Assembly (NCBI GenBank): GCA_041659465.1
Contig: JBAZYD010000007.1
Location: 5,670-69,669, forward strand
DNA length: 64,000 nt
Direction: 5' to 3'
From: Candidatus Micrarchaeia archaeon
GTDB lineage: Archaea; Micrarchaeota; Micrarchaeia; Anstonellales; Anstonellaceae
In this document: in pieces, positions 9,892 through 20,693 of the stretch
Layout of the letters: each line of letters begins with the position of its first letter
Numbering within the stretch: the first letter of the stretch is position 1
Made by a program: the position numbers and the translations under genes
The notes under the pieces: model-generated
Seen by the model: only the letters and a program-made list of their open reading frames with translations
Databases searched by the model: none
Told to the model about the DNA's origin: nothing

Positions 9892-9991
9892 CGGGCCCGG
9901 AGGGATTCGAACCCTCAACCGTCTGGTGTCTTCCAGGCAAATCAATATGCCAGTTCGAAGCCAGCTACTCTATCCATTGAGCTACGGGCCC
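9892..9991 (-). tRNA. tRNA-Arg (anticodon TCG) with a 27-nt canonical 37/38 intron (9928-9954)
   Basis: Hand-folded cloverleaf: GGGCCCG/CGGGCCC acceptor, GCTC..GAGT D arm, loop CTTCGAA, T arm GAGGG-TTCGAAT-CCCTC, discriminator G. Bulge-helix-bulge motif: CTTC/GAAG helix flanked by 3-nt bulges GAA and ACA. No encoded CCA. Confidence 0.9.
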
Positions 9992-10052: not shown

Positions 10053-10616
10053 CTAGAACTCGTCGTAGTGCTTGGAGGGGGGTCGCACGAACAGGTAGTA
10101 TTTCGATGCGCCGCCCAGCTCCTCGTTCACGCGCGAGACTATGAGGTTCGCCGGGTCAGGGAGGAGCGAGACGCGGGACTGGATGTCCTTGAAGCTTTCA
10201 AACGGCTTTTCCTCGCGCGCGGAAAGTATCTCCTGGAGGTGCTTCTTGCCGATGCCGGAGAGGAGCTCGAGCTGGTGCAGCCTCATGGAGATTGGGCCTG
10301 ACTTGTTGAAGAACGCAACGAAATCCGCCTCGCGGTCGGAGATTATGTTCCTCGCCGCGATGGGAAGCTCGCTTCGAGACGTTGCCGACAGGTCCTGGAA
10401 CTCGAGCCTTTTCTTTATCTTCTCCACTTCCACCCTCCCTTCCTTGCCTATGCACAGGCGCTGGCCAAGCGCGCAGGCCGAGCCGCGGATAATGGAGACT
10501 TCCAAAAGCGTGAAGAACTTCTCGCCCACAAGCTGCGCTATCGGCTCGCGCATGCGGTCGGCAGGCCTGCCATCGGGCATGAAGTCGATGACGCGGGCGT
10601 ACAGTTCCATTTCCAT
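10053..10616 (-). CDS. DUF655-family protein (OB + helix-hairpin-helix), conserved archaeal neighbour of rpoF/ksgA
   Basis: MEMELYARVIDFMPDGRP...IGKKHLQEILSAREEKPFESFKDIQSRV (HhH-like). Sits in the classical L21e-RpoF-DUF655 gene order. Confidence 0.8.
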   Translation of the reverse strand: MEMELYARVIDFMPDGRPADRMREPIAQLVGEKFFTLLEVSIIRGSACALGQRLCIGKEGRVEVEKIKKRLEFQDLSATSRSELPIAARNIISDREADFVAFFNKSGPISMRLHQLELLSGIGKKHLQEILSAREEKPFESFKDIQSRVSLLPDPANLIVSRVNEELGGASKYYLFVRPPSKHYDEF

Positions 10617-10624
10617 AAAATCCA

Positions 10625-10722
10625 CTTTTTTGGAAATAGGTTGTCGAAGACAACCGTGTTTCCATATTTCCAATCCCCTAAATATGGAAATAAGCCGCCA
10701 GAGCGGCTGTGTTTCCATATTC
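10625..10722 (-). promoter_or_regulatory. Two tandem nested hairpins in the rpoF-DUF655 spacer (candidate structured leader or operator)
   Basis: Unit A: tggaaa-ta-ggttgtc-gaa-gacaacc-gtg-tttcca (10631-10664). Unit B: aatatggaaa-ta-agccgc-caga-gcggct-gtg-tttccatatt (10681-10721). Outer stem and ta/gtg internal loop are the same in both; the inner stems are unrelated. Confidence 0.5.
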
Positions 10723-10740
10723 ATTACCTACGTTAACGTT

Positions 10741-10767
10741 GATTATATTTAAGGCAATATAAAATGC
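10741..10767 (-). promoter_or_regulatory. A/T-rich TATA-like region just downstream of the rpoF stop (possible internal promoter for the DUF655 gene)
   Basis: Minus strand reads GCATTTTATATTGCCTTAAATATAATC. If used, it gives a 5' leader of at least 100 nt that contains the hairpins. Confidence 0.35.
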
Positions 10768-10773
10768 TATGCG

Positions 10774-11232
10774 TCAGTCTGCCTTTTTCTTTTCCTTCGC
10801 GTCCTCGGCAGGCGCATCGGAGGGTTTGGCCTCGGCTGCAGGCGCATCAGGCAGCACTTCCACTTTCGGCTCGAACTTCCTTGCCTTCTTGGAGTATTCC
10901 GCGATGAGCGCCTCCACCTTCTCCATCTTCTTCTCGGCAAGCTCGACTTTGTCCTTCACCAGTATGAGCATGAGCTGGCTCTTGTTCTTCGGGAGGATGT
11001 CCACGATTTTCACCGCGGTTTCCGTCTTTACCTCGAGCTTCCCAAGCTCGTCGAGCATCTCCTTCGCATCGTTGTACTTCAGGTGGGAAAATCGCTTTGC
11101 GTACTCAAGGGAGGTCTGCTGCTCGAAGCCGAACTCGCCTGCCGTGCCCTGCCTCTTGTCGAGTATCTTCTCCACTTCGGCAAGCATTGCCGGGCGGATT
11201 TCGTTTGCGCCTTTTCCTATCATTTGAACCAC
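10774..11232 (-). CDS. rpoF: DNA-directed RNA polymerase subunit F (Rpo4)
   Basis: MLAEVEKILDKRQ...FGFEQQTSLEYAKRFSHL...AVKIVDILPKN is the HRDC-like Rpo4 pattern. Lies directly downstream of L21e. Confidence 0.85.
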   Translation of the reverse strand: MVQMIGKGANEIRPAMLAEVEKILDKRQGTAGEFGFEQQTSLEYAKRFSHLKYNDAKEMLDELGKLEVKTETAVKIVDILPKNKSQLMLILVKDKVELAEKKMEKVEALIAEYSKKARKFEPKVEVLPDAPAAEAKPSDAPAEDAKEKKKAD

Positions 11233-11235
11233 CGT

Positions 11236-11520
11236 TTATTTCTTCCCCACTGCCTGGAGGTGCACCGGGGGGATGATAAGCCTCTTTGTGGCGTTCATGT
11301 CGGAAATCTCCACCACGTATGACTTGCCGCGCTGCGCCACAATCGTGCCTGTCCTTCCGCGGTAGCGCGGGTGCGGCATCCCGGAGTACTTCGACTGCGA
11401 GTCGATTGCCACGCAGTCGCCGACGGAGTAGCCGCTTATAAGCCCGGGTATCGTGAGCTTGCGCTTGGACATCCCAAGCAGCCTGCTTCTTTTTGACATT
11501 TTTCCAAGTGAGCGCCTCAT
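11236..11520 (-). CDS. rpl21e: 50S ribosomal protein L21e
   Basis: SKRSR...GDCVAIDSQSKYSGMPHPRYRGRTGTIVAQRGKSYVVEI is the L21e signature. The true start may be the internal ATG at 11499. Confidence 0.9.
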   Translation of the reverse strand: MRRSLGKMSKRSRLLGMSKRKLTIPGLISGYSVGDCVAIDSQSKYSGMPHPRYRGRTGTIVAQRGKSYVVEISDMNATKRLIIPPVHLQAVGKK

Positions 11521-11632
11521 GTTTCATCACCTTAATAGCATCCGATGGCGTCTTGCGGCCAAGCGCCGCAGCCAGGGGATGATTACCCTGCGTCTAGTTT
11601 AAATACCTTGCCCTTTTAAATATCTCAGACGG

Positions 11633-11640
11633 TTTAAAAA
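11633..11640 (+). promoter_or_regulatory. TATA box for tbp
   Basis: tttaaaaa lies 24-31 nt upstream of the ATG at 11664. It overlaps the first in-frame ATG at 11640, which argues against that start. Confidence 0.5.
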
Positions 11641-20471: not shown

Positions 20472-20563
20472 TGGGCCCACGAGGATGGAGCGCGAAGCGC
20501 GACAGATTTTGCGCGCAGCGCAAAACGTGGGCACACGAGCAGCAGCGAGTGGGCCCACGAGGA
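20472..20563. repeat. 14-nt exact direct repeat tgggcccacgagga (20472-20485 and 20550-20563)
   Basis: The second copy is the 3' acceptor strand plus T-stem of tRNA-Val. The first copy lies 64 nt beyond the tRNA 3' end. The spacer contains the perfect hairpin TTTTGCGC-TGC-GCGCAAAA. Confidence 0.8.
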
Positions 20564-20693
20564 ATCGAACCCCGAGTCTTCTGCACGTCAAGCAGACGTC
20601 TTACCATTGTCGAACCCATTTGCACTTTTCCGTTGACGCTTTTGCGAGCGTGCCCATCTGGAGCGAGCAAAAGGGTCATTCGACTATAGGCCC
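20550..20693 (-). tRNA. tRNA-Val (anticodon GAC) with an about 70-72-nt intron in the D-loop (about 20605-20677)
   Basis: Exon 1 is GGGCCTA-TA-GTCG-AAT(G). Exon 2 is (AT)GGTAAGAC-G-TCTGC-TTGACGT-GCAGA-AGACT-CGGGG-TTCGATT-CCTCG-TGGGCCC-A. BHB-like: TCGA/TCGA 4-bp helix flanked by 3-nt bulges ATG and CAA, then an ACCC/GGGT helix. Confidence 0.8.

Follow-up and report, generated by a model that had tools for sequence, protein, structure and literature searches.

Start-site-mimicking hairpin arrays upstream of the DUF655/COG1491 gene in Micrarchaeia: a candidate translational decoy/anti-start leader

In the erm and cat translational attenuation leaders, one RNA strand has two alternative partners, one pairing register buries the initiation region, and short open reading frames (ORFs) lie within the leader. 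REP and BIME sequences are short imperfect palindromes that lie in tandem between genes and vary in number from strain to strain; they are scattered over the genome in tens to hundreds of copies, and their hairpins stabilize or process mRNA in bacteria. In archaea, L7Ae binds a k-turn in its own 5′ untranslated region, which makes this an autoregulatory leader (PMC5539422, PMC6298567). Template-switch hairpins, finally, copy the reverse complement of a neighboring sequence and have perfect arms with apparent compensatory changes (PMC8794818). Here we describe an array of nested hairpins in the spacer between rpoF and a gene of the DUF655/COG1491 family, found in a 64-kb stretch of DNA (contig JBAZYD010000007.1 of a Candidatus Micrarchaeia archaeon; the whole stretch is referred to below as the window). 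We tentatively read these hairpins, from sequence comparison and predicted folding, as a translational decoy/anti-start leader, that is, as a lineage-specific array of start-site mimics placed before DUF655.

Like the erm and cat leaders, the array contains short ORFs and a strand with two alternative partners, and one of the two registers buries the initiation region. Unlike them, it has no conserved leader peptide or stalling motif, the competing partner reproduces the start site literally instead of being an unrelated sequence, and its modules are repeated zero to three times, variably between strains, in a DPANN archaeon. Like the L7Ae leader, it is a structured element in a putative 5′ leader, and the gene concerned encodes a nucleic-acid-binding protein of the translation/RNA apparatus, but it has no tandem G-A pairs (its internal loop is CAC/UA) and it is absent from most DUF655 genes, those of close relatives included. 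The tandem arrangement of short imperfect palindromes in an intergenic region, in numbers that vary by strain, recalls REP/BIME; the array, in contrast, sits at a single locus and derives from the start codon of the gene next to it. It also resembles template-switch hairpins in its reverse-complement copies, its perfect arms, and its apparent compensatory changes, although its restriction to a single gene and its persistence at 70% protein identity are not predicted by the template-switch model. Judged by its sequence, the array is a putative structured 5′ leader with mutually exclusive pairings, as are other alternative-hairpin leaders. It is unusual in that its decoys copy the start site literally, its copy number is modular, and its host belongs to DPANN.

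The DUF655 gene of the window (10053-10616, minus strand) encodes 187 amino acids (Pfam PF04919, E = 9e-58). Its start, AUGGAAAUGGAA (ATGGAAATGGAA), lies at 10616-10605, with the ATG at 10616, and 157 nt separate this ATG from the rpoF stop codon (10776-10774), which bounds the spacer on the other side. Two hairpin units lie on the minus strand between a TATA-like box and the DUF655 start codon. Unit 1 (10681-10721) has the layout AAUAUGGAAA / CAC / AGCCGC-UCUG-GCGGCU / UA / UUUCCAUAUU. Its 5′ arm (10721-10712) is a decoy start with an AUG at 10718-10716, its inner stem with the UCUG loop occupies 10708-10693, and its 3′ arm, the anti-start arm (10690-10681), completes a perfect 10-bp outer stem. 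Unit 2 (10631-10669) reads UGGAAA / CAC / GGUUGUC-UUC-GACAACC / UA / UUUCCA, with a 5′ arm and decoy AAAUAUGGAAA (AUG at 10665-10663), an inner stem with a UUC loop at 10655-10639, and the anti-start arm UUUCCA at 10636-10631. A 13-nt perfect direct repeat, GTGTTTCCATATT, was identified by a repeat finder as common to the two units, its copies 53 nt apart, and the hexamers TGGAAA and TTTCCA occur 6 to 7 times within ~120 bp in both orientations. Linker 1 (UAGGGGAUUGGAAAUA, 10665-10680, minus strand) separates the units and carries an extra copy of UUGGAAAUA (10673-10665), a 9-nt perfect complement to the unit 2 3′ arm; the minimum-free-energy fold of the region uses this pairing. Linker 2 (AAAAAGUGGAUUUU, 10617-10630, minus strand) leads from unit 2 to the true start and is homologous to the linker CAAAAUGAAGUGGAUUUU that follows one kind of unit (type B, below) in relatives.

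The anti-start arms also have partners downstream. In alternative hairpin 1 (10659-10690, minus strand), the unit 1 3′ arm and adjoining linker, UUUCCAUAUUU, pair with the unit 2 5′ arm AAAUAUGGAAA through 11 nt of perfect complementarity (10659-10669 with 10680-10690), which excludes the outer stems of both units. In alternative hairpin 2 (10609-10637, minus strand), the unit 2 3′ arm plus an A-run supplies the 5′ side, AUUUCCAAAAAA (10637-10626), and the partner is UUUUAUGGAAAU (10620-10609), DUF655 AUG included; the complementarity extends over 12 nt and is 92% complete. The predicted pairings are thus mutually exclusive, and one of them includes the start codon of the downstream gene, as in alternative-hairpin leaders. 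A preliminary description of the window had already listed the 157-nt spacer, the shared TGGAAA/TTTCCA outer stem extended to 10 bp in one unit, the identical internal loop (CAC/UA on the minus strand), the different inner stems AGCCGC/GCGGCT and GGTTGTC/GACAACC, the 11-nt complement with its mutually exclusive folds, and the recurrence of the hexamer across the start codon. All of these were found as described, and the repeat finder recovered the outer stem, the 11-nt complement, and the 12-nt complement across the start codon.

We gathered orthologous loci from metagenome and genome collections (80 of the 167 relatives reported by the metagenome scan were taken in) and compared the region upstream of each start. 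Among 30 loci compared, 16 distinct loci bear the element and 14 are free of it; the failure of structure in orthologous spacers, which the preliminary description had named as the outcome that would speak against it, is therefore not what is seen. In an alignment of 24 distinct units, 94% of the cells of the nested hairpin are standard pairs, and an earlier alignment of 19 units gave the same picture. Four inner-stem pairs vary on both sides (AU/GC, 13:9; CG/UA, 12:11; UA/CG, 13:11; CG/UA, 22:2), in counts that take no account of phylogeny. None of 500 column shuffles reached the observed covariation score or the observed percentage paired, and sliding the 3′ partners by 1 to 3 columns reduced pairing to 29 to 58%. 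The expectation that the two window units were an instance of a selected structure is partly supported, with compensatory changes in the inner stem and a score that shuffling does not reproduce. Because the inner stems occur in the combinations AGCCGC, GGTTGC, GGCTGC, and AGTTGC, several independent compensations are indicated and not one event. The most invariant positions are the TGGAAA/TTTCCA hexamers, and the C-G pair that closes the inner stem is present in 22 of the 24 units. A homologous inner stem, (A)GTTGC(C)/(G)GCAAC(T), is found also at 70 to 77% protein identity, where the leaders are otherwise unalignable, and AGTTGCC/GGCAACT seems to be the older form.

The anti-start helix, in which the 3′ arm and the start of the linker pair with the end of the linker and the next ATGGAAA, is 90% paired, and four of its pairs switch between AU and UA, in counts that again take no account of phylogeny. 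Variants within the clade include UAAU/AUUA, UAUUU/AAAUA, and AAAAU(C)/(G)AUUUU; at 70 to 77% identity (L171, L173, and L023), the helix reads CAUUUUC/GAAAAUG or CAUUUC/GAAAUG. In these distant relatives the two strands match each other in the local sequence: ATTTCCATTTTC with GAAAATGGAAAT in L171, ATTTCCATTTC with GAAATGGAAAT in L173, and TTTCCATTTC with GAAATGGAAA in L023. The linker therefore covaries with the bases just 5′ of the next AUG, and the anti-start strand can thus pair either with a decoy or with the true start. The alternative pairing that had been noticed to reach the start codon in the window is accordingly a conserved and covarying feature of the orthologs.

Under the decoy/anti-start reading, each module would comprise an AUGGAAA decoy, a GC-rich inner hairpin, an anti-start strand UAUUUCCA extended by a few linker bases, and a linker, and in some lineages the decoy would copy upstream Shine-Dalgarno-like bases as well. 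The anti-start strand could pair backwards with its own decoy, helped by the inner hairpin, to form the nested hairpin and leave the next start free. Alternatively, it could pair forwards with the next copy of the start, and since the last copy is the real start, this would bury the latter in a helix of 10 to 13 bp. In arrays of several modules, the choice of register would propagate, and the last module would decide the accessibility of the DUF655 AUG. The balance of the two registers would then set how often ribosomes initiate on DUF655, and the gain or loss of modules through recombination between ATGGAAA repeats could retune that level between strains. Co-transcriptional folding order, a bound protein (possibly DUF655), and ribosomes loading on the decoy are possible triggers. 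This scheme supposes that the TATA-like box drives transcription of the minus strand, that the active form is RNA and not DNA, and that translation of DUF655 would be affected, each of which we infer.

Folding predictions bear on this scheme in several ways. The 186-nt region containing the array folds with a z-score of −3.7 on the minus strand and −5.2 on the plus strand, with none of 200 shuffles as good, and the single units are predicted at −16.2 kcal/mol (unit 1) and −14.3 kcal/mol (unit 2), with z-scores of about −4.3 to −4.4. The forward, or anti-start, hairpins of the window come to −9.0 kcal/mol (alternative hairpin 1) and −8.3 kcal/mol (alternative hairpin 2). When whole leaders were folded from ~30 nt past the TATA box to position +36 of the gene, the forward register was the minimum-free-energy structure in 8 element-bearing orthologous leaders: the inner hairpins stand alone, each anti-start strand lies on the next ATGGAAA, and the last one covers the real AUG. 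In those 8 leaders the start region had a mean unpaired probability of 0.01 to 0.15, versus 0.30 to 0.62 in all element-free leaders, with the window predicted to be intermediate (0.35 to 0.40). To compare the registers, we forced the last anti-start arm into either its upstream or its downstream pairing and took the difference between the ensemble free energies. In most loci this was no more than ~2.6 kcal/mol, and the exclusive folds proposed earlier for the window are close in predicted energy in most orthologs too; the window itself favors the decoy register by 0.7 kcal/mol (37°C) to 2.3 kcal/mol (20°C). As a thermodynamic prediction that bears on a possible RNA thermometer of the fourU or ROSE kind, the accessibility of the start region shifts by at most 0.11 between 15 and 37°C in the leaders folded.

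Every array that we found lies directly upstream of DUF655, in Micrarchaeia with a DUF655 protein 70 to 97% identical to that of the window. One copy is present in L088, L018, L171, and L173; two in the window, L005, L010, L012, L013, L023, and L102; and three in L004, L019, L030, L033, and L085. Orthologs with 83 to 97% identical DUF655, some of them from one metagenome, have 0, 1, 2, or 3 units, and the array is in this sense a variable-number tandem repeat whose copy number differs among close relatives. Hairpin-free loci include L001, L006, L007, L008, L009, and L011 at 94 to 96% DUF655 identity and L002, L016, and L017 at 88 to 89%. The array is thus not a fixed feature of the L21e-rpoF-DUF655 locus, as about half of the closest relatives have a hairpin-free leader of 40 to 75 nt. 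In element-free leaders, ATGGA(A/G)ATGG lies 40 to 75 nt past the TATA-like box, whereas element-bearing leaders have their first decoy ATG 39 to 86 nt past the box and the real ATG at 118 to 226 nt. The first module's ATGGAAA therefore occupies the position of the element-free start, and the array has the look of a sequence inserted or duplicated at the start codon. ATGGAAA direct repeats flank the units, and there are leader backgrounds that carry units as well as ones that lack them.

A module, counted from one ATGGAAA to the next, is 49 to 59 nt long (112 nt in L018) and has four parts. First is ATGGAAA, which repeats the seven bases that open the gene; the copy is longer in L171, where the first 13 nt of the decoy are identical to the gene, and in L173, where the decoy perfectly duplicates 22 nt of the start region, including a GGTGA Shine-Dalgarno-like motif. 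A 3- to 4-nt spacer follows, with a GC-rich stem of 6 to 7 bp and a loop of 3 to 5 nt that starts with U in nearly all units. The third part, T(A/G)TTTCCA, is the complement of the start region and corresponds to the anti-start strand UAUUUCCA, and the fourth is a linker of 14 to 24 nt that ends in GAT(T/A)TT directly before the next ATGGAAA. Type A units have the inner stem AGCCGC/GCGGCT and the linker TAATGAAAAGTTGATATT, type B units have GGTTGC/GCAACC and CAAAATGAAGTGGATTTT, and the two types occur in shuffled order among strains. In the window, a unit with a type A inner stem and a linker of yet another kind precedes a type B unit, and L005 and L102 are arranged likewise. The "swapped inner stems" noted previously are thus different, as stated, but they are not peculiar to the window; they represent two types of unit that recur and are recombined from strain to strain.

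These same features allow for a quite different origin, a near-neutral, self-propagating palindromic tandem repeat that template switching keeps in shape and whose effect on expression is incidental; we regard this main rival as possible but doubtful. The start region would first have undergone an inverted duplication or template switch, giving ATGGAAA...TTTCCAT; the ATGGAAA repeats would then slip or recombine unequally, so that units are added, shuffled, and precisely lost; and quasi-palindrome correction would maintain complementary arms without selection on the RNA. The mechanism is documented, and compensatory-looking changes in palindromes can arise through template switching without selection (PMC8794818). 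It would account for the patchy presence of 0 to 3 copies among near-identical strains, for the shuffled order of types A and B, and for the 3′ arm and linker start being a nearly exact reverse complement of the following start region, as a template-switch copy would be. The array is also made up wholly of a sequence and its reverse complement. Two loci are in keeping with this origin. L004 (2833-3000; 83% DUF655 identity) has three perfectly identical 56-nt tandem copies, which suggests either that the array expanded very recently or that the short-read assembly leaves the number of repeats uncertain. In L018 (302-413), the module apex tolerates a 56-nt insertion that itself consists of two perfect hairpins, CATCGAGC-TCCC-GCTCGATG and TGCATTTTGCC-GC-GGCAAAATGCA, giving a unit that is predicted to form a three-way junction and is not recognized by the covariance model described below. 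What a neutral repeat leaves unexplained is the persistence of the architecture and of a homologous inner stem at 70 to 77% protein identity, in leaders that cannot otherwise be aligned, as well as the closing C-G pair in 22 of 24 units and the nearly constant loop-initial U. Moreover, a generic process should hit other start codons too, and in our scans only one gene was affected.

Several of these points, along with some from the folding, weigh against the decoy/anti-start reading itself. Copy number is unstable (0 to 3 units), and because about half of the closest relatives have no element, it must be dispensable for an otherwise essential gene. The identical copies of L004 resemble recent slippage and not long-term selection. 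The energy balance between the registers spans −6.4 to +6.9 kcal/mol among orthologs, and thus no common set point is conserved. Strand assignment is also at issue: the antisense unit hairpins are predicted to be more stable than the sense ones (−19.7 and −18.3 versus −16.2 and −14.3 kcal/mol), and the wobble pattern, with ~3 sense G-U pairs versus ~5 sense A-C/C-A mismatches (which would be G-U in the antisense RNA), does not favor the sense strand, as would be expected of a repeat that is not selected as RNA.

The position of the hairpins relative to transcription was assessed from the flanking sequence. A TATA-like box, GCATTTTATATTGCC (10753-10767, minus strand), with the core TTTTATAT at 10764-10757, begins 6 nt past the rpoF stop, and RCATTTTATAYTGCC or a near variant of it occurs a few bases past the rpoF stop in 30 of the 30 orthologous loci compared. 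By the archaeal TATA consensus, this is the putative DUF655 promoter. Since every ortholog has the box between rpoF and the hairpins, these are more likely to form the 5′ leader of a transcript specific to DUF655 than to be a spacer or processing site inside an operon, and the earlier suggestion of a processing site within an L21e-rpoF-DUF655 operon loses ground accordingly. In a broader form of that suggestion, the hairpins might protect a 5′ terminus against 5′-to-3′ exonucleases or mark an endonucleolytic cut between the rpoF and DUF655 transcripts. Stable GC-rich inner hairpins near the predicted 5′ end, in tandem and in variable number, would suit this role, as would the operon-spacer context. 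We nevertheless find it unlikely, because it leaves unexplained why the arms copy and complement the start region and why the linker covaries with the bases 5′ of the next AUG, because the conserved box upstream makes any need for processing unclear, and because the geometry, by inspection of the sequence, is neither that of a bulge-helix-bulge nor that of a k-turn.

We also considered whether the region is coding, either for leader peptides in upstream ORFs or for an N-terminal extension of DUF655. The AUG of unit 1 (10718) is in frame with DUF655 with no stop between them, a Shine-Dalgarno-like AGGU (10726-10729, minus strand) stands 7 nt ahead of it, and a decoy AUG reads into DUF655 in the window, L012, and L019; the database protein P0008 (204 amino acids) has been called in this way. 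On the other hand, the listed ORF at 10053-10724 encodes 223 amino acids, of which the DUF655 profile matches only from residue 39; the PF04919 match opens two codons past the ATG at 10616, and the orthologous DUF655 proteins all open with MEME. The real start is therefore 10616. The AUG of unit 2 opens a 155-codon ORF that is out of frame in the window (10198-10665, minus strand), one-nucleotide indels in the loop convert METRLLRQPISTK* to METRLPSATYFHKMKW..., so that frame, length, and peptide vary, and the compensatory stem changes alter the peptide as well. What is kept is therefore base pairing and not coding, and a coding role is very improbable. As a matter of annotation, decoy AUGs yield misleading ORFs, both the 155-amino-acid ORF just mentioned and the 223-amino-acid ORF from the ATG at 10724, with P0008 extended likewise.

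The sequence around the true start differs between the two classes of loci. A Shine-Dalgarno-like AGGTAAT often sits 7 to 9 nt before the real ATGGAAATGG in element-free orthologs, and in the window it precedes the decoy AUG. The real start is ATGGAAATGG in 16 of 16 element-bearing loci, and the synonymous ATGGAGATGG is used in 6 of 14 element-free loci (Fisher's exact P of ~0.005, worked by hand on loci counted without regard to kinship). This bias could reflect pairing with the anti-start arm, or it could reflect homogenization among the ATGGAAA copies.

To look for further copies, we built a covariance model, R1, from the 24 units and ran it with the search filters off. In the 64-kb window it found the two array sites only, unit 1 at 57.3 bits and unit 2 at 49.7 bits, with the next match at an E value of 0.22. 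In 94 loci (395 kb) all matches lay in the DUF655 upstream spacer, and there were none in relatives below 70% identity. The covariance-model search that the preliminary description had proposed thus returned a single genomic setting. A regular expression for arm, stem, and arm found no unit elsewhere in the window or in the fetched loci, and DUF655 genes at 44 to 77% identity outside the clade had no complement of the start region upstream. We then scanned a degenerate pattern, TGGAAAYRCNGNNGN{4,8}CNNCNTRTTTCC, over one genome per species in 185,579 species. It matched 85 stretches, 8 of them with a complementary inner stem, and 6 of these 8 were Micrarchaeia genomes, in which every match is immediately upstream of DUF655; the other two were GC-rich bacterial sequences, which we take to be chance matches, as we do the one match in a viral collection.

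This restriction to one gene also bears on whether TGGAAA/TTTCCA are half-sites of a DNA operator, bound by a dimeric transcription factor that represses or activates the DUF655 promoter. The hexamers are the most invariant positions and occur in both orientations downstream of the TATA-like box, which is the typical position of an archaeal repressor site. A DNA-binding protein, in contrast, would not need the bases between the half-sites to be self-complementary and to covary, and the protein-bound DNA alternative raised in the preliminary description explains the inner-stem covariation poorly. The hexamer is, moreover, simply the start codon plus the Glu codon and its complement, the motif stands upstream of no other gene in the scans and thus defines no regulon, and no linked regulator gene was present in the contigs examined. 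An operator accordingly seems highly unlikely to us. The readings set out here leave a small remainder for something that we have not considered.

A number of known element classes were tried and rejected. A miniature inverted-repeat transposable element or REP-like dispersed repeat was dismissed as there was no copy outside the DUF655 leader in the window, the 94 loci, or the 185,579 genomes. A CRISPR array does not fit 1 to 3 units whose linkers, 14 to 24 nt long, are kept from strain to strain and have complementary ends. For a k-turn or L7Ae element, the loop is wrong: CAC lies opposite UA between Watson-Crick pairs, and there are no G-A pairs in the 24 units. A bulge-helix-bulge was rejected on the basis of the single 3/2 internal loop, followed by a 6- to 7-bp helix with a 3- to 5-nt loop; a C/D box, on inspection, on the basis of the absence of its defining sequence features; and a leader-peptide attenuator of the erm/cat/trp kind on the basis of upstream ORFs that vary in frame, length, and sequence. 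A likeness of the type A inner stem AGCCGC/GCGGCU to the base of 16S rRNA helix 45, on which the product of ksgA (a gene usually linked to DUF655) acts, was considered as well, but AGTTGCC/GGCAACT seems to be the older inner stem, and the window contains no rRNA for comparison. Searched against Rfam 15 at gathering thresholds, the window yielded RNase P RNA and two tRNAs but nothing at the array, and a permissive search of 10560-10800 gave a best score of 25 bits against a threshold of 134 bits. The RNase P RNA is of the archaeal type (RF00373; 28988-29239, plus strand; 93.7 bits) and spans 252 nt versus the 288 positions of the model. The tRNAs are at 9892-9991 and 20550-20617, both on the minus strand; the former spans 100 nt versus a 71-position model and therefore probably contains an intron. 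ARAGORN reported no tRNA in the window.

Gene order around the array is kept across all related contigs. The product of rpoF (10774-11232, minus strand) is Rpb4-like, with a Pfam PF03874 score of 25.5 bits, just below the cutoff of 25.6 bits, and the L21e gene (Pfam) lies at 11236-11520 on the minus strand. The C-terminal coding region of rpoF contains an imperfect 23-nt direct repeat (10796-10848, 30 nt apart) that is translated into a low-complexity tail with many Ala, Pro, Glu, and Lys residues, and the length and sequence of this tail differ among orthologs. In the divergent intergenic region between L21e and TBP (11521-11640), there are TATA-like boxes at 11589-11596 (TTTAAATA) and 11614-11622 (TTTTAAATA). 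The TBP-side box is ~18 to 26 nt ahead of the first ATG (11640), which fits a leaderless transcript or one with a very short leader. The L21e start, at least 70 nt from its own TATA-like box, indicates that the earlier remark that most genes here look leaderless does not extend to every gene of the window.

Proteins of the DUF655/COG1491 family are nearly universal in archaea, being conserved in most of them. The family has been described as having an S1-like N-terminal domain and annotated as RNA binding (PMC2584109), and the gene is reported to be essential in Haloferax (PMC3017900). The literature that we found on it comprises only this RNA-binding prediction of 2008 and the essentiality result of 2010, with no function assigned and no mention of the leader; the Protein Data Bank holds entries 2i5h and 27ae, the latter titled "DNA-binding protein." Given the S1-like domain, the RNA-binding annotation, and the essentiality, autoregulation is conceivable. 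We have accordingly entertained the idea that the array is a bistable RNA relay in which DUF655 binds the hairpins and shifts its own start register, with the number of modules serving as a heritable and rapidly evolving gain control. Binding by DUF655 or by any other protein is conjecture, and we give the relay only a slim chance of being correct.

To our knowledge, few cis-acting RNA regulators are known in archaea, and our literature search found none for the DPANN lineages, to which the uncultivated Candidatus Micrarchaeota/Micrarchaeia named among the DUF655 relatives belong. The motif is confined to a narrow clade of these organisms. The logic of the array is unusual in that the partner of the anti-start strand duplicates the gene's own initiation site, and since zero to three interchangeable modules occur, the natural strains amount to a ready dosage series. 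If the repeat is neutral, it would be a clean natural case of template switching building and maintaining nested hairpins at a start codon, and it would call for caution in covariation-based RNA discovery. A dedicated RNA element at DUF655 could, in turn, help to show what the protein binds: if the DUF655-bound relay were true, the hairpin would be the first clue to a natural RNA ligand of COG1491 and the first cis-regulatory RNA described in DPANN archaea.

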